Source: a virus
Direction: 5' to 3' (one strand)
Virus record (IMG/VR): IMGVR_UViG_3300045988_158900
Length of the DNA stretch: 64,000 nucleotides
Below, piece by piece: positions 1-6,973 of the stretch. How positions within the stretch are numbered: position 1 is the stretch's first letter; every line of letters begins with the position of its first letter. Made by a program: the position numbers and the translations under genes. Under the pieces are notes generated by a model, which made no database searches, was not told the DNA's origin, and worked only from the letters and a program-made list of their open reading frames with translations.

Positions 1-648
1 CTAATGTTAGAATATAGTGATTATGTTAATGGAATAAAACCTTATAGTATTGATGCTAATGAAATTCAAGGGTTTCATGCAACTTATGGAGAATTAAATG
101 TATTGGACAGAAATCACGAATGTCCAGAATCTAATGAACATGCAATTACATTAATGCCTGATGGAACTATTGCTGAGTGTCCCTGTACCTTTTTATAGAA
201 TTTAGATTCTTATAAACAAGAATTATTAAATAATAAATAGTATTGGGAATATAAATCTTGTTTAATTAGAGACGGTAGTTTTTATAATCCATTATTAGGT
301 GATGAAAAACTTGATAATTACCATAGCTGGTATGTTTATGGTGGTGGATTTATTGGGACTAATTCTACTTATGCTAATTTAAATTTAAATATGGCTTATG
401 AAATGGCTTTATCAAGATAGATTGATTATAACTATGCATTAAATCCAGAGTTATTAATGAGACATTATATGGCTATTTTTACAACTGCTGAATGCTATCG
501 TGAAAATGTTAATGTGACTCATAATCATTTTTTAACAGACCATAATATGTTTAGGCGTTGGTATAATGGTTATGCTGAATTAGGATATAAAGATCATCGA
601 GAGAAGATTAAAAAAATTATGGAAAATGTATTAAAAGGAGAAAATTAA
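1..648 (+). CDS. hypothetical protein (5' partial); TAG read as sense
   Basis: Frame of ORF 4..198 continues through in-frame TAGs at 196, 232 and 418 to TAA at 646-648 and merges with ORF 457..648. Confidence 0.5.
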
Positions 649-1832
649 TGTTAGTACAAGAACAAGATAATCTTTTATTGCGAGATATAATAGAACGTAA
701 TTATTATACATTTTTTCGTAAGAATGAATATGTAAATAAAAATTTAAATATTTCTTTTTTCTATGATAATGATTATACTGATTATAAAATTATTCCGAAT
801 TATGAGTCATTAGAAGATAAAAATGCTAACTTTGAATAGATTTATAATAATTTTAAATTATTTTTAAATTATTATAAAGACCAAGGATTTAATGCTAATA
901 TTAACATTCATGATGATAAATTTTTTGATAATTTTGAATTAAATTTATCACTATTTAATTTAATTTATAAACAAGAAATTAAATTTAAATCATTAAACTT
1001 TTATATTAGTTTATATAAATTTGAAGATTTAAATTCTCTATTTAATAAAATTAATATATTAAATAATAAGTTTCATATAAATTTTGTTTTTAGCTTACTA
1101 ATTTCTCAAATTGATTTATTTAAAAATCAAGATATTAATAATTTAAATTATAAATTAAATATTTTAATTCCTCCACAAATGCCTTCAGAAGAATTAATAT
1201 TTAATTAGAAAATAATTGATAGTAATAATTTTAATATTGATTAGTATATTGAAGTTGATTCTGATTTATGGACTATCGAAGCGATAGAGGATTATTTAAA
1301 ATATTTAAATTACTTAATGGATAATTTAAATGATTTAAATGAAATTTTCTTTACAAATTTACCTATTACTTTACAAGATTAGCATGTATTAGATAATACA
1401 AATTGTAAGAAAAATTGTGATTTTCAAAATTCATTAAATGTTTTGATAGCAGATTTAAGCATTAATTTATGCCATAAATTTCAATTTAAAGATTTAATTA
1501 TTGGTAATTATATATATAATGAAGAAAATAATAAATTAGAAATTGTAAGTAAAAATCTTCCAACGATAATATTAGGTGCGCATTTAAAACGTTCTAGCAC
1601 TCCTCATTGTGAAACTTGTCCTTATGTTAATATATGTCAAGGCTTTTGCTTTATGCGTTCTTATTTAAAATGCTATAATCCTATTATACCTATTCAGGAA
1701 AGTTGCTTATTAAAAAAAATAAAATATAATTTTATTTTTAATAAATTAAAAAATCAAAATTTTAATATTGATAATAATTTAATTATTTCAGATTTATATA
1801 AGCAATATTTACATCAAATCTTAAAACATTAA
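648..1832 (+). CDS. protein with C-terminal SPASM/twitch-like Cys motif (CxxCx5Cx3C); TAG-recoded
   Basis: Single frame from ATG 648 to TAA 1830 contains several in-frame TAGs; C-terminus HCETCPYVNICQGFCFMRSYLKC. Confidence 0.45.
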
Positions 1833-1846
1833 GGAGGGGAAAAATA

Positions 1847-2116
1847 ATGTATTTACCAATACATAATAATTATTATTATTTATTAATTAATACTCCTCTT
1901 ACTTATCCAATTTGTTTAGATGAAGAAGAAGCTTTAGCTTATTTAAAATATATTAATCGAGATGACTATCAATATAATAATATTGCTAATTATGATGTTC
2001 TTGATTATGAAAAAATAATATATATTGAAGTTTCTTTTCCAAATAATGAAGAGATTCAAAAATTACTTACTAAAATTAAAAATAATATTGCAACTGGTTA
2101 TGCATTAAGAAATTAG
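1847..2116 (+). CDS. hypothetical protein (may read through TAG to TGA near 2219)
   Basis: ORF track; GGAGG RBS upstream of ATG 1847. Confidence 0.4.
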   Translation: MYLPIHNNYYYLLINTPLTYPICLDEEEALAYLKYINRDDYQYNNIANYDVLDYEKIIYIEVSFPNNEEIQKLLTKIKNNIATGYALRN

Positions 2117-2165
2117 TATAAAAATCGTCTTTTTGATTTTAGCAATTATAAAGAGGAGCGGCTTT

Positions 2166-3569: not shown

Positions 3570-3572
3570 TAA

Positions 3573-5114
3573 ATGAGACAATTTGAATTTCCTTATAATT
3601 TTGATAAAAAATTGTTATATATTTTACAAACATTTACATCTGGTAATGATATTAATTGTATTTATTTACCTCCATATCTTAAAGATTATTAGACAATTTT
3701 ACGAACTGCTGAATAGGCAGAACAATTAGATAAAATGTCTCGACAAGAATACGAAGATCATCTAAATTTTATTAATTCATTATTCCCAAATAAAATTTAG
3801 ATTTTATTATAGAAAACTAATATTTTTTTAAACGCTGAACTCGTAAAATATTATATTAATTTAGGTGTTAAAAATTTTTGTGTAGCATCTATTGAACAAG
3901 CTAAAATTATTAAATAGATTGATTCAACAATTAATATTGTTGGATCAATTGCTATGCAAATTACATAGGAAAAAATAATAAATAATTTACAAGAATTTTC
4001 TCTTTATTTTGATAGTTTTGTTTTACCATTTTCTGCATCTCGTCAATTATCAGAATTAAAAAAATTACCAAAAAATTTTAATTATATTTTATTAATCAAT
4101 TCTTTGTGTAGTATTAAATGTAATGGAAAAAATCATTGGAATTTTGATTATAAAGAAGATAAAGAGATATTTTGCCCAGGAAAATTAGGAGAAATTCCTT
4201 GGAATGAATCTGCCAAAATTCGTCCAATGGATTTAGGATTTTTTGATCCTTATATTTCAGTATATAAAATTCAAGACCGTGGTTGGCCAACAGAAGATAT
4301 ATTGCGTGATTATATTTTATATACTAGTGAGTATGATAATCTGCCTGGTATTATATACAATACAAATTATTATACCTCAAAAACTAATTGTTATATGACA
4401 TTTACTGATGAATAGTATTTACCTTGTGTAATTCGTCAAGCCCAAAGAATTAAATATTTAAATTCTAAATATGAATATATTGTAATGGTAGATGAAAATG
4501 ATTTAGTTTCTTAGAAAGTATTAAAAGAAAATAATATCCATTATATTTCTATTAAGCAAAAATTATTTTCTTAGGCAGCTTCTGGACGCTTTCAAAAAAC
4601 ATTCAATAAATTTAAAATAATTGATTATTTAGACAAATATGAAAAAATTTGTTGGTTAGATGCAGATACTATTTTAACTGAAAATATTGATTATTTATTT
4701 GATAAAATGTCTACGGATTGTTAGTTTTTAGGATCTATTGATAATAATTTAAATAGAATTGAAGGTGGAATTTTTATTATTTCAGATAAAATTGATTTAG
4801 ATAATTTTAAAATACAATTATACAAAAATTAGTTTATTTGCCCTCATGATGAAGCTTTTTTAACCATATATTTTTAGACACAATATAATGTTAATCTTTC
4901 TTATATGGCTCCTTTTCATTTACATTTTTCAGGATATATTAAATTATTTAATTGTAAAAATTTTCCCTTAATTAAAAAAATATTTTATGATTTATCTCCA
5001 TTAGATTTTAATAAATATATAGACACTCATTTAAATGAAATAACTAATACTATTGATTATTGGAATAAATTTAGTAATACTTTAAATAATTTAGAGGAAC
5101 AAATAAATGAATAA
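3573..5114 (+). CDS. fusion or adjacent domains: U32-like peptidase N-terminal part plus glycosyltransferase family 8 (glycogenin-like, DxD motif) C-terminal part; TAG-recoded
   Basis: One frame from ATG 3573 to TAA 5112-5114 with many TAGs; Cys motif LCSIKCNGK in N-part (U32-like); GT8-like WLDADTI in C-part. Confidence 0.45.
4385..4713 (+). repeat. direct repeat copy 1 (about 329 bp, identical to 6261-6589)
   Basis: Exact sequence identity read by eye (AATTGTTATATGACATTTACTGATGAATAG ... GATAAAATGTCTA). Confidence 0.8.
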
Positions 5115-6246
5115 TTGTTATATGACATTAATGACTAATGAAAAATTTTTACCAGCCGTAATAAGATGCAATTAGTCATTAAAATATTATAAATCAAAAT
5201 ATCCATTTATAGTACTAATTCCAGAATCGGACCAATATTTACAAGAACAATTAATAAAACATGATATATTATATAAAATTATCCATGTAGATAAATTTCA
5301 AGAAGGTAATATTTTATTTACTTATAATGATACAATTAATAAATTTTAGATATTTAATTATGTAGAATATGATTATATATGTTTTATTGATGCTGATGTT
5401 ATTTTTTTTGGAGGTAATATAGATATTGAATTTGATTTGGCTGAAAAAGAAAATTCTAAATTTTACGGATATTTTGAACCAGATCATTGGGATAATCAAT
5501 TGGTAGAATTCGAAAGATTAATGGGCGGTTTATTTATTATTTAGCCAGACATAAATTTTTATCCTCAGCTTAAAAATTTAGTTTATAATAATCAATAGAT
5601 GTTTAGTGATGATGAAGAAATTTTAAAATTATTATTTTCATCTTTAACAAAAAAACATTCTGTTCCAGAACCTTACACTCATTTTGGAGGTTTTATTAAA
5701 CCTTGGGAATTAAAAAAAACTAATTTATTTATTGAATATTTTTTTTATGAAAATTTATCAATTGATGAAGTTGGATATTGGTTAGATCATATAGCAATTT
5801 TTTTAGGAGAATTTCGAACTTTAAGTAATTGTTATGATAGATATAATTTTAATTCAAATAATGGATTCTTTGTAATTCCATAGACGGAAGAAGATATAAA
5901 ACAATGTATTAATTATTAGATTTTATTTTCAAATTATGGTCATGATTATCCATTAATTATTTGTATTGATCCAATATTATTAACTCCAGAAAATGATTTA
6001 TTAAATAAATTAGATAAAGCTACTTGTAGTTTTAAATTAATTCACAATATAAAAAATAAAAATTTATACTAGCAATTTAAATTTTTAGAATAGGAATTTA
6101 AAGGAGAATATAATAGAATATGTTTTATCTCTAACTTAAATTTTCAATTAGAAGAAAATTTAGATTTATTGTTATCTCCTTTTACTTCTTCAGAAATTAG
6201 ATTAGAAAAATTAAAAAAATATAAGGATTCATTAATATACATTTAA
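5107..6246 (+). CDS. glycosyltransferase family 8 paralog, TAG-recoded
   Basis: N-terminus NNCYMTLMTNEKFLPAVIR is paralogous to the 4380 and 6248 genes; FIDADVIFFGG DxD motif. Confidence 0.5.
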
Positions 6247-6247
6247 T

Positions 6248-6973
6248 ATGAAAAAAATTAATTGTTATATGACATTTACTGATGAATAGTATTTACCTTG
6301 TGTAATTCGTCAAGCCCAAAGAATTAAATATTTAAATTCTAAATATGAATATATTGTAATGGTAGATGAAAATGATTTAGTTTCTTAGAAAGTATTAAAA
6401 GAAAATAATATCCATTATATTTCTATTAAGCAAAAATTATTTTCTTAGGCAGCTTCTGGACGCTTTCAAAAAACATTCAATAAATTTAAAATAATTGATT
6501 ATTTAGACAAATATGAAAAAATTTGTTGGTTAGATGCAGATACTATTTTAACTGAAAATATTGATTATTTATTTGATAAAATGTCTATAAATTGTCAATT
6601 TTTAGGATTTTTTAATAAATTAATTAATCAAATGGAAGGAATTATTTTTATTTGTAGTAATCAAATTGATTTAAATAATTTTAAACATTTTTTAAATCAA
6701 TCATAGATAAATAAAATTAATGACGAAGAAATATTAAATGATTATTTTTTACGACAAAAAAATAGCATTTTTTTTGAAAAAAATATGTCAATAATTCATT
6801 TTAGTGGATTTATAAAATTATTTAATATTTCAGAGGAGTTTCCATTAATTCATAAATTATTTTTTACTATGTCTAATAGAGAGTTTAATAATTTTATTGA
6901 CAAATATTTTACTCAACTTAATGATATAGCAATATAGTGGACTGATTTAGTAAATACTTTAGAAAAAATCTAA
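6248..6973 (+). CDS. glycosyltransferase family 8 paralog, TAG-recoded
   Basis: First about 110 codons are nucleotide-identical to 4385-4713; DxD motif WLDADTI. Confidence 0.5.
6261..6589 (+). repeat. direct repeat copy 2
   Basis: Identical to 4385-4713, diverges afterwards. Confidence 0.8.

Follow-up and report, generated by a model that had tools for sequence, protein, structure and literature searches.

The window analysed here comprises the 64,000 nucleotides of IMG/VR virus record IMGVR_UViG_3300045988_158900. Its first 6973 positions are broken into fragments under table 11, and hold seven long contiguous plus-strand open reading frames when TAA and TGA alone are taken as stops. These genes and the related elements of the window are the following.

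1-648, plus strand: g1, last 648 nt of a radical SAM gene (full gene of 479 codons at L004 7048-8484)
648-1832, plus strand: g2, SPASM-motif protein (TIGR04085, E = 2e-5)
1847-2215, plus strand: g3, small conserved protein of 122 aa
2166-3569, plus strand: g4, radical SAM enzyme with CNLNCTNC (Pfam Radical_SAM, E = 2.3e-11)
3573-4379, plus strand: N-terminal U32-like TIM barrel of g5 (conserved C179, C183, H188 and C201)
4380-5114, plus strand: C-terminal GT8 of g5, copy A (DAD motif visible in the sequence)
4385-4713, plus strand: gene-conversion tract, copy A (GT8 residues ~4 to 113, including the DxD motif)
5107-6246, plus strand: g6, glycogenin-like GT8, extended at the C-terminus by ~180 aa
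6248-6973, plus strand: g7, glycogenin-like GT8, copy B (Pfam Glyco_transf_8, E = 1.3e-6)
6259-6587, plus strand: gene-conversion tract, copy B (329 bp identical to copy A)
6977-7009, plus strand: promoter-like 33-nt recurrent motif, right edge of the island formed by these genes
13822-14625, plus strand: papain-like C1 peptidase (Pfam Peptidase_C1, E = 2e-9)
14642-15907, plus strand: radical SAM paralogue of the g4 family (Pfam Radical_SAM, E = 3.9e-9)
19184-19255, plus strand: suppressor tRNA, anticodon CTA (ARAGORN; Rfam tRNA, 55 bits)

The carrier of the island is a phage of roughly 200 kb that reads TAG as Gln. In alignments with diverged homologues, Gln was 5.4-fold enriched at the residues opposite TAG codons, with Lys and Glu enriched about 2-fold, and the tRNA-CTA is the predicted means by which the TAG codons of the island are read. 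A CTA suppressor tRNA, reading frames restored with TAG as sense and Gln at aligned positions are also features of TAG-to-Gln recoded gut phages (PMC10879173, PMC11210395), whereas here TAG use is strongly uneven among genes, from none in several higher-GC genes to about 20 per 1000 codons in the island. The preliminary description had called positions 1-6973 heavily TAG-recoded, with up to 1 TAG in 40 codons, and our counts agree with it: the island genes contain 53 TAG in 2752 codons (19.3 per 1000) against 3.0 per 1000 in the remaining genes of the window (p = 2e-17, Fisher), and the peak, in the U32-like/GT8 fusion, is 12 of 514 codons or 1 in 43. Among Gln codons the TAG share is 42% for island genes, against 27% for other genes of low GC and 9% elsewhere, and the very low GC of the island (0.18-0.28 vs 0.33-0.46 in core genes) partly accounts for the enrichment. 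This composition, together with a TAG share of Gln codons that nears the CAA share, as expected under AT-biased mutation, could also be the product of drift in decaying or neutral accessory DNA that encodes no pathway. We consider this very unlikely, since every island reading frame is intact and uninterrupted by TAA or TGA even where lineages share 27-60% protein identity, the Fe-S cysteine motifs are invariant and gene order is conserved.

The window begins inside g1, whose 5' part precedes its start, and the stretch present is 98.5% identical to L004 7837-8484. In the g1 protein C14, C18 and C21 (CX3CX2C) are invariant in five homologues, as are C304, C323 and C428; it matches the NCBIfam twitch radical SAM model NF033640 (E = 2.4e-7), and is predicted to have a twitch-like auxiliary Cys pair. 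The earlier SPASM assignment of g2 was upheld by a complete seven-Cys motif (C257, C275, C321, C324, C330, C334 and C353), invariant in five homologues; g2 itself scores 24.9 bits against TIGR04085, below the cut-off of 27, while this model is matched by four of the five homologues and the C-terminal part of QhpD by all five. The CX3CX2C cluster of radical SAM enzymes is absent from g2, in which no Cys before residue 257 is invariant among the five homologues. The position of g3 is constant, between g2 and a g4-type radical SAM gene, with homologues of 39-48% identity in the same slot in L005, L007, L008, L013 and L014, and Pfam and NCBIfam-type profile searches gave no family match for it. 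Pfam confirmed the radical SAM call at g4, which also matches Fer4_12 (E = 2.6e-7) and contains 11 TAG codons. Because P0007 and P0008 (728-731 aa) combine a g4-type radical SAM domain and a U32-like domain in one fusion protein, g4 may be the functional partner of the U32-like domain encoded next to it.

This N-terminal domain of g5 had been described as U32-like, and the assignment holds only as a remote relationship: the best structural match is a solved U32 protein and sequence links to the family pass via distant members, whereas Pfam did not match the window protein directly. Its conserved Cys cluster suggests Fe-S binding. Both the TIM-barrel fold and a conserved Cys cluster are shared with the peptidase U32 hydroxylases RlhA, TrhP and UbiU/UbiV, although the Cys spacing of g5 (CX3C...C) is unlike the usual U32 pattern, the domain is here paired or fused with radical SAM and GT8 domains, and the substrates of the known members are rRNA, tRNA and quinones, not proteins. 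Enzymes of this family hydroxylate without O2, and prephenate is used (PMC5727448, PMC6599085, PMC6747719, PMC10990095). The U32-like Fe-S domain would be a working partner of g4, and may, like the characterised enzymes of the family, hydroxylate independently of oxygen.

Additionally, three tandem glycogenin-like GT8 genes had been proposed, and all three could be supported. Two are recognised by Pfam Glyco_transf_8, g7 and the g5 gene (3573-5114, E = 2.7e-5), and g6, for which Pfam gave no match, through its similarity to g7 (34% identity, E = 7e-23) and to glycogenin-1, its best solved relative (E = 7.7e-6; E = 0.0096 for g7). A DxD motif and an H-x-x-G-x-x-K motif are present in all three paralogues, and glycogenin is the closest solved structure for each. 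P0001-P0004, with identities down to 57%, retain the in-frame fusion of U32-like and GT8 domains. Related islands have one GT8, to which g6 corresponds; its identity to that of L013 and L014 is 36%.

The g5 and g7 GT8 sequences share the 329-bp repeat, at an offset of 1874, and beyond it identity falls at once to ~50-65%. The preliminary description gave the length and the first copy exactly, with the second shifted by 2 bases to 6261-6589, and attributed the repeat to recent duplication or gene conversion. Both paralogues are present in lineages that differ by 18-30% in the 3' halves, yet the 5' 330 nt of the two are 98.5-100% identical within most genomes and 90.5% in one. Between lineages both copies change at the same sites: in L020 they are mutually identical, yet 46 shared sites differ from the window, and in L019 15 such sites are shared and 4 are confined to a single copy. 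Because the copies share these lineage-specific changes, the identity reflects recurrent gene conversion, and this concerted evolution in six assemblies speaks against a recent duplication. Near-identical repeats can be homogenised by short-read assemblers, and a 4.3-kb scaffold (L015) joins window position 4811 straight to 6253, like a repeat shortcut; nevertheless, that the identity is an artefact of collapse or homogenisation of two diverged copies is scarcely credible, given that six independent assemblies from several samples contain both copies in the same arrangement, that the shared sites described above are found, that the end of the tract varies between strains, and that such an artefact could at most lift ~98% identity to 100%. 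The identical donor-binding half, which reaches just past the DxD motif, together with C-terminal halves of 50-65% identity, suggests that the g5 and g7 enzymes use the same sugar donor at different acceptor sites.

The window cuts the island, and comparison with related contigs indicates that positions 1-6973 make up the right two thirds of a conserved island of ~11.8 kb. The left part is present in contigs ~98% identical, where genes for a Zn-finger protein, an FkbM methyltransferase, a radical SAM enzyme (u3) and a Tyr-repeat protein immediately precede the stretch shared with the window. At the right edge, the 33-nt motif, with eight copies in the window against zero expected and none within 1-6973, is also found 3' of the island in L003, L004, L005, L013 and L014. 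At least five further TAG-recoded phage lineages carry the island, with protein identities of 27-61% and a shared order of Zn-finger, FkbM methyltransferase, radical SAM, small protein, Tyr-repeat protein, g1 to g3, g4-type radical SAM and U32-like genes; this order is held in L008, L013 and L014, and two blocks are swapped in L005. In relatives the island is joined by enzymes that are hallmarks of RiPP pathways, YcaO in L013 and L014 and ThiF in L005. Furthermore, a standard-code bacterial contig has a u3 homologue (E = 2e-30) and a U32-like-domain protein, beside which an MvdD-type ATP-grasp enzyme and a peptide of 78 aa are encoded.

For the C1 peptidase and the second radical SAM gene, which had been linked to the cluster and whose domains Pfam confirmed, homologues flank one contiguous island in L013. 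There, a 74% identical C1 peptidase adjoins the YcaO gene at the left island edge, and a 38% identical relative of the 14642-15907 product is contiguous with the island. In the window, the latter gene has the GC (0.18) and TAG density (21 per 1000) of the island, and the peptidase, separated from the island by a tRNA array, is a candidate processing protease; it is likewise not joined to the island in L005, L008 and L014.

The Tyr-repeat gene lies ~0.8 kb before the window start and was read in the contigs ~98% identical to the window, not in the window's own record. Its product has a conserved helical head of ~130 residues, for which structure searches gave no informative fold match, followed by 15-30 tetrapeptides Tyr-(Ser/Gly)-x-(Cys/Arg/Gln/Asp). 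Such a head is long for a leader. Among 63 homologues every fourth position is Tyr, invariant or nearly so, length differences between strains are mostly whole repeat units, and the Cys of the repeats does not track the presence of YcaO. Between two strains compared this protein had the lowest identity (91-93%, vs 96-99.7% for the other island genes), and it is encoded in every island that has that part on the contig (L003 and L004, of this lineage, and L005, L008, L013 and L014).

A peptide, DNA or the cell wall had been named as possible targets, and because the missing left part encodes this Tyr-tetrapeptide-repeat protein, a peptide or protein is far likelier than the other two. Glycans are common substrates of both GT8 and FkbM enzymes. 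Phage radical SAM enzymes take part in base hypermodification (PMC8989533), and the radical SAM profile matches of the island cover generic core regions only, so that the island could act on phage DNA, on a nucleotide or on a glycan of the host surface or cell wall, with the repeat protein as unrelated cargo. We judge this unlikely, as domain searches found no nucleotide- or DNA-handling domain in the island, be it a kinase, nucleotide-binding, hydroxymethylase or DNA-binding domain, the SPASM motif, the YcaO and ThiF of relatives and the bacterial ATP-grasp context point to peptide substrates, and the repeat protein is as constant as noted above.

All these data lead us to lean towards the island being a RiPP-like post-translational modification pathway with the Tyr-repeat protein, assigned by gene neighbourhood, as its most likely substrate. 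In this regard, domains and synteny partly bear out the proposed glycosylation and radical SAM modification pathway, its chemistry being presumptive. The island resembles RiPP clusters (proteusins, ranthipeptides, triceptides, and QhpD on the QHNDH gamma subunit) in its several radical SAM enzymes, its SPASM domain, its methyltransferase, the YcaO or ThiF of its relatives, and a protein encoded alongside that is conserved at its N-terminus and repetitive towards its C-terminus. It differs from them in that its carrier is a large TAG-recoded phage, the SPASM protein is without a radical SAM cluster, the candidate leader has no NHLP or Nif11 match, and profile searches of the island found no RiPP recognition element, leader-type family or exporter. 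To our knowledge, no RiPP class includes a U32-like partner domain and GT8s. Proteusin leaders are described as unusually long and structured (PMC10858898).

The repeat protein might instead be a poly-precursor from which modified tetrapeptides are excised, for instance by the C1 peptidase, as many copies of a small glycosylated, methylated Tyr-derived molecule. In that case the end product would not be an intact modified protein but a toxin or a cofactor, comparable to those made by the mycofactocin and PQQ pathways. Each repeat has an invariant Tyr, the C1 peptidase is syntenic in L013, and the kinds of enzymes parallel those of mycofactocin, in which a radical SAM/SPASM enzyme acts on the Tyr of a peptide and a peptidase, a glycosyltransferase and a methyltransferase also take part (PMC7491314, PMC9679996). 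However, no orthologous component was detected, profile searches found no MftB-, MftD- or MftE-like families, the glycosyltransferase is a GT8 and not MftF, there are 15-30 Tyr repeats rather than one C-terminal Tyr, and the peptidase is outside the island in this phage and in L005, L008 and L014, which makes this alternative improbable.

Glycogenin is a GT8 retaining glucosyltransferase that glucosylates its own tyrosine. As g6 and g7 are closest to it among solved structures, and a Tyr-rich protein is encoded near the island, we speculate that the island GT8s may glycosylate Tyr, although the similarity is low (E = 1e-2 to 8e-6) and the g5 copy is fused to a U32-like domain. In the RiPP-like pathway that we favour, the radical SAM enzymes g1 (with the SPASM-only g2), u3, g4 and the 14642-15907 paralogue would cross-link or alter residues of the repeats, the three GT8s would attach sugars, for which Tyr or freshly introduced hydroxyl groups are possible sites, methylation would fall to the FkbM enzyme and the C1 peptidase may trim the product, and the heavy TAG load would tie expression of the island to the suppressor tRNA of the phage.

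With TAG read as Gln, the first 6973 nt of the window resolve into seven plus-strand genes (g1-g7), contiguous or overlapping slightly, where the standard bacterial code gives short open reading frames only (first 7 kb). Across the window, open frames of 100 codons or more cover 39.4 kb of the plus strand with TAG as a stop and 54.2 kb with TAG as sense. ARAGORN detected a tRNA with anticodon CTA, a suppressor tRNA, at 19184-19255, and two IMG/VR viral contigs, 198 kb and 128 kb long, match the window at ~98% identity; the window therefore derives from a large phage reading TAG as an amino acid. 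Opposite TAG codons of the island genes, diverged homologues were enriched 5.4-fold in Gln and about 2-fold in Lys and Glu. Suppressor tRNA, restored frames and Gln at aligned positions are together the marks of a TAG-to-Gln recoded phage (genetic code 15), which supports the assignment of TAG to Gln here.

The seven genes belong to a unit of unusual composition, termed here the island. GC content is 0.21-0.26 in the first 8 kb of the window compared with 0.30-0.42 in most of the remainder, and g1-g7 together with a radical SAM paralogue at 14642-15907 carry 19.3 TAG per 1000 codons, against 3.0 in the other window genes (Fisher p = 2e-17). The preliminary description had put the peak at 1 in 40 codons, which is essentially right, g5 having 12 TAG among its 514 codons. 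This richness is partly compositional, since CAG-to-TAG changes are silent under this code and favoured by AT-biased mutation: TAG makes up 42% of Gln codons in the island, 27% in other low-GC genes and 9% elsewhere. The TAG density of the island is about twice that of the other low-GC genes, and the islands of relatives are as heavily loaded, reaching 35 per 1000 codons. It is a plausible prediction that the island depends on the phage suppressor tRNA, and hence that its expression is controlled in time. At the opposite extreme of codon usage, four higher-GC genes (0.43-0.46) lack any TAG:

25711-27300, TROVE-like DUF2828/DUF7788 protein
30756-33248, protein with major-vault-protein shoulder and repeat domains
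39858-41234, RNA ligase
43764-45170, flotillin/band-7 protein

Three of these four use CAG as their only Gln codon and the flotillin-like gene uses 8 CAA and 20 CAG; given this contrast with the island, they may belong to a separate expression class or have been acquired recently.

The island genes of the window, and a peptidase gene discussed with them, are as follows:

1-648, plus strand, 3' end of a longer gene (g1)
648-1832, plus strand, protein with a seven-cysteine SPASM motif (g2)
1847-2215, plus strand, island gene between g2 and g4 (g3)
2166-3569, plus strand, Radical_SAM protein (g4)
3573-5114, plus strand, U32-like domain and GT8 glycosyltransferase (g5)
5107-6246, plus strand, GT8 glycosyltransferase (g6)
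6248-6973, plus strand, Glyco_transf_8 protein (g7)
13822-14625, C1 peptidase (Pfam Peptidase_C1)

Pfam bore out most of the domains first named by eye, namely Radical_SAM in g4 and 14642-15907, Glyco_transf_8 in g7 and the C-terminal half of g5, and Peptidase_C1 in 13822-14625. Against PF04055, whose gathering threshold is 29.5 bits, g4 (44.6 bits) and the paralogue (37.3 bits) scored above threshold and g1 (17.5 bits) below it. All three carry the CX3CX2C motif (CNLNCTNC in g4, CNLNCLNC in the paralogue and CDLKCSYC in g1, the last invariant in five homologues), and the designation of g1 as a putative radical SAM enzyme rests on this motif and on a match to the twitch radical SAM model NF033640 (E = 2.4e-7). 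Neither g4 nor g1 had a solved relative at E ≤ 0.01. The SPASM pattern of g2 is complete (C...G...C, CX2CX5CX3C, C), with C257, C275, C321, C324, C330, C334 and C353 invariant in five homologues; its TIGR04085 match (24.9 bits, E = 2e-5) falls just under the curated cut-off of 27 bits, and four of the five homologues match at E ≤ 0.01. No radical SAM core was found in g2, which has no conserved Cys in its first 250 residues, no Radical_SAM match and no CX3CX2C motif. We accordingly rejected a radical SAM/SPASM maturase, as the motif occurs without the core in the same polypeptide, and also a degenerate paralogue of g1, as profile comparison of the two showed no similarity. Matches of the island to PHROGs were to generic radical SAM only. 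A defence role as prokaryotic viperin (pVip, PADLOC) was likewise discarded, because only the first ~95 profile positions match, corresponding to the generic radical SAM core, and the best NCBIfam score was 49.8 bits against a cut-off of 180. For PF01501 (gathering threshold 24.3 bits), the g5 C-terminal domain scored 24.3 bits and g7 28.6 bits. There was no Pfam match for g6, which is 34% identical to g7 (E = 7e-23) and has glycogenin-1 as its best solved relative (E = 7.7e-6), as does g7. The translations contain the GT8 DxD motif (WLDADT in the GT8 domain of g5 and in g7, FIDADV in g6) and, in all three, the C-terminal H-x-x-G-x-x-K motif (HFSGYIK, HFGGFIKPW, HFSGFIK). The C-terminal region of g6 gave a bare hint (E = 1.7) of a further, degenerate GT8-like half, which is not claimed.

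The first 269 residues of g5 gave no Pfam or PDB match, whether searched directly or as a small profile, and PF01136 (Peptidase_U32) matched neither the window protein nor nine close relatives, even at E ≤ 10. An exhaustive profile search recovered 190 representative clusters carrying this domain. Peptidase_U32 was matched by 3 of 56 diverse distant members (best E = 8.5e-8), and conservation among these 56 reaches at least 90% at C179, C183, H188 and C201. The U32 label given at first sight thus denotes distant kinship and does not amount to membership of the family. Profile searches of the domain against solved structures gave nothing useful, and no informative extra domains were found in longer family members. 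Characterised U32 relatives are prephenate-using, oxygen-independent hydroxylases (PMC5727448, PMC6599085, PMC6747719, PMC10990095). In two homologous proteins (P0007, P0008) a single polypeptide joins the U32-like domain to a g4-type radical SAM domain, and in four others (P0001-P0004), as in the window, to GT8; such fusions speak for joint action of the three activities.

The GT8 domain of g5 (copy A) and g7 (copy B) share an exact identity of 329 bp, 4385-4713 being equal to 6259-6587; length and first interval were correctly reported before, and the second interval (6261-6589) was off by two bases. The tract spans GT8 residues ~4 to 113 and ends just past the DxD motif, beyond which the two genes drop to 50-65% identity, a value also found for the 3' halves in all genomes compared. 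Six assemblies representing several samples were compared (the window, the IMG/VR contigs L001 and L002, and the ENA scaffolds L019, L020 and L021), and the same two-copy arrangement was present in all six. The longest identical runs between copies were 329, 114, 282, 291, 195 and 195 nt, and within genomes the copies were 98.5-100% identical (90.5% in L001). Comparison of L020 with the window gave 86.8% identity, with 46 differences common to both copies and none private; within L020 there is no difference between the two 5' segments, whereas the 3' halves depart from those of the window by 30% and 18%. Between L019 and the window, 15 differences are shared and 4 private. Because copies are alike within a genome and lineage-specific changes are shared by both, the identity is, on these comparisons, the outcome of concerted evolution by recurrent gene conversion. 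Of the two origins first proposed for it, recent duplication is contradicted by the 46 shared and 0 private differences to L020 and gene conversion is retained. As for collapse of the repeat during assembly, which had been singled out for checking, polishing could at most lift ~98% to 100%; with both copies kept in six assemblies, a 3' tract end that varies among strains, and shared changes in L020 and L019 that collapse cannot explain, we regard an artefact as extremely improbable. Since conversion keeps the donor-binding half of the two enzymes identical while the rest diverges, they probably use one sugar donor and different acceptor sites. The pair offers a natural experiment in glycosyltransferase evolution, with the donor half held identical and the acceptor half diverging. 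A separate 4.3-kb scaffold (L015; ENA MUNK22-1 scaffold_12036) joins window 900-4811 to 6253-7076, without the 1874 bp between the repeat copies, and its product P0003 fuses the U32-like domain to a GT8 that ends in the 3' half of copy B. The junction is either a natural crossing-over deletion or an assembly shortcut.

The window cuts the island, since in near-identical contigs further island genes, preceded by a terminator-like hairpin, continue before position 1, and the whole unit measures ~11.8 kb. The upstream genes are:

upstream of the window, Zn-finger protein (u1)
upstream of the window, FkbM-type methyltransferase, Pfam E = 4.8e-8 (u2)
upstream of the window, radical SAM enzyme, E = 6.8e-11 (u3)
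upstream of the window, 145-aa protein (u4)
6416-7036 of the 98% identical contig L004, ~0.8 kb before window position 1, 206-aa Tyr-repeat protein (u5)
upstream of the window, 5' part of g1, carrying its CX3CX2C motif

The Tyr-repeat protein u5 consists of a conserved head of ~130 residues and a tail of Tyr-(Ser/Gly)-x-(Cys/Arg/Gln/Asp) tetrapeptides (YGTC, YSSR, YGSR, YSGC); proteins of this type often end in ...VQIRC. It has 63 homologues, in which every fourth residue is Tyr with few or no exceptions and which differ in length mostly by whole repeat units; islands further removed carry YSSQ/YNGQ repeats (L008) or three-residue Y-x-N/K repeats (L005). Between two strains, u5 is the least conserved island gene (91-93% identity vs 96-99.7% for the others). 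Structure prediction gave a helical head, at moderate confidence, and a disordered tail, and no informative fold match was obtained. The gene adjoins maturase-type genes in L004 and in four other lineages, and we consider its product, encoded outside the window, a candidate precursor and substrate of the island. Domain and profile searches of the island proteins found no PqqD-like recognition element or ABC transporter. In another TAG-recoded phage contig (L007, 10663-12571), an anaerobic-sulfatase-maturase-like radical SAM/SPASM enzyme is followed by a 189-aa protein whose first ~75 residues are Cys/Gly/Ser repeats (CSGC, CGSG) and which may be a second substrate type.

The island recurs in other TAG-recoded phage contigs at protein identities of 27-61%. 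In L008, L013 and L014 the order is u1-u5, g1, g2, g3, g4-type radical SAM and U32-like (U32-like before g4-type in L008), in L005 two island blocks are swapped and a ThiF-like gene is added, and L007 has five g4-type radical SAM genes, a sixth of SPASM type and two U32-like genes. On L014, a 200-kb phage scaffold, the gene flanking the island encodes a protein 95% identical to that of window 7195-7644, whereas the island proteins share 27-60% identity with ours; the island thus diverges far faster than a neighbouring core gene or was exchanged between related phages, and in either case these identities mark it as a hot spot of divergence or exchange within the phage group. Deposited phage genomes gave no nucleotide match to 1-7000 or 25000-46000. 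The idea that the C1 peptidase and the second radical SAM enzyme belong to the same system is supported by L013, where a C1 peptidase 74% identical to that of the window lies beside a YcaO gene and a 38% identical relative of 14642-15907 closes the island. This YcaO gene occupies the left edge of the island in L013 and L014 (TIGR00702, 76 bits vs a cut-off of 75.65). A YcaO search of viral contigs was negative, and tblastn gave no match in the window or in the fetched stretches of L001-L005, L007, L008 and L009. As none was found in the 7.8 kb upstream of the window either, a YcaO/TOMM-type cluster was rejected for this phage. Furthermore, two standard-code bacterial contigs (L016, 487-3121; L017, 51-4527) carry a u3 homologue (27% identity over its full length, E = 2e-30) directly before a 543-aa protein with a C-terminal U32-like domain. 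Upstream of these, L017 has genes for an MvdD-type ATP-grasp enzyme and a 78-aa peptide, as is typical where ribosomal peptides are modified, and the cluster also encodes a 196-aa protein. It looks like a bacterial peptide-modification cluster sharing two enzyme families with the phage island.

Downstream of the island, 27 tRNA genes (ARAGORN), including the CTA suppressor, are arrayed at 7054-24478 with protein genes interspersed. Rfam returned tRNAs only, with a tRNA-like match at 10300-10369 absent from the ARAGORN calls, and lacked the tRNA-Tyr at 19482-19569. A 33-nt promoter-like motif, TTGATTTTTTATAAAAAATATATTATAATATAT (TTGATT box, 17 nt, TATAAT), has eight copies in the window where 0 are expected:

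6977-7009, 7641-7673, 7736-7768, 9217-9249, 16602-16634, 21884-21916, 24523-24555 and 41927-41959, plus strand, 33-nt promoter-like motif

Most copies precede tRNA genes and none lies inside the island, and the motif also follows the island in five related contigs. Scanning for consensus promoters and terminators was uninformative, with 90 sites against 76 expected in DNA this AT-rich. Between the first copy and tRNA-Trp, a perfect 9-bp hairpin at 7020-7047 (TTAAGGAAG ... CTTCCTTAA), kept in L015, may be a processing or termination signal. The tRNA region also encodes a full-length sodium:dicarboxylate symporter family protein (12359-13534; Pfam SDF, E = 2.4e-91) and, directly after the displaced radical SAM gene, a formate/nitrite-transporter-like protein (15909-16457; E = 9.4e-17), two membrane transporters that are unusual phage cargo. 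Other window genes encode gyrase-like subunits, a DNA ligase, a PhoH-like protein and TROVE-like, vault-like and flotillin-like proteins, together with an endolysin:

49065-50903, endolysin with CHAP, PG_binding_1, Amidase_2 and SH3 domains

These domains suggest a Gram-positive host, in keeping with related contigs (L011, L012) that were binned with MAGs of a rumen Clostridia member and of Candidatus Epulonipiscium.

Taken together, the enzyme families, their conserved association with the Tyr-repeat protein, the domain fusions and gene conversion between the GT8 copies lead us to favour, by a modest margin of confidence, a RiPP-like maturation pathway acting on that protein. Radical SAM enzymes would cross-link or otherwise alter repeat residues, assisted at g4 by the putative Fe-S domain of U32-like type, for which hydroxylation is a reasonable guess from its characterised relatives. 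The GT8 enzymes would attach sugars, their closest solved relative, glycogenin, being an enzyme that glucosylates tyrosine; methylation would be the task of the FkbM enzyme, and processing of the product might fall to the C1 peptidase. In mycofactocin biosynthesis, steps of these types act on a peptide that contains Tyr (PMC7491314, PMC9679996), without detected orthology to the island. The Tyr-repeat protein could instead be a poly-precursor of a small Tyr-derived product, which we consider rather unlikely. Equally doubtful is a non-protein target such as DNA or a glycan (the preliminary description had named DNA and cell wall beside peptide), since nucleotide-handling domains were not found in the island and the associated enzymes are of peptide type. 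That the island is neutral, decaying DNA is very hard to reconcile with intact reading frames and Cys motifs invariant across deep divergence.

The enzyme families of this proposed maturation pathway are known; new are the phage setting, the candidate Tyr-repeat substrate, the SPASM-only protein and the radical SAM/U32-like/GT8 linkage, and a literature search found no description of such an island. More tentatively, it could represent an undescribed class of ribosomal natural-product or protein maturation in large TAG-recoded phages whose hosts are Gram-positive bacteria of gut and rumen, with a long-headed substrate bearing 15-30 tetrapeptide repeats centred on Tyr, 4-6 radical SAM enzymes and a new U32-like Fe-S partner, glycogenin-like glycosylation, methylation and amber-suppressor gating. 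If true, this would pair radical SAM and U32-like enzymes in a new way, and it would be one of the rare instances in which a lytic phage produces a peptide or material bearing heavy modification. The island offers an uncharacterised pairing of radical SAM enzymes with a U32-like domain, putatively an Fe-S TIM barrel, backed by fusions and a bacterial counterpart, a candidate for a new kind of repetitive Tyr-rich substrate, and a concrete test case for stop-codon recoding as a gate on particular phage gene sets. If the reading is right, large phages with alternative codes carry complete multi-enzyme peptide or protein maturation pathways, which standard annotation misses because every gene is broken by TAG codons.
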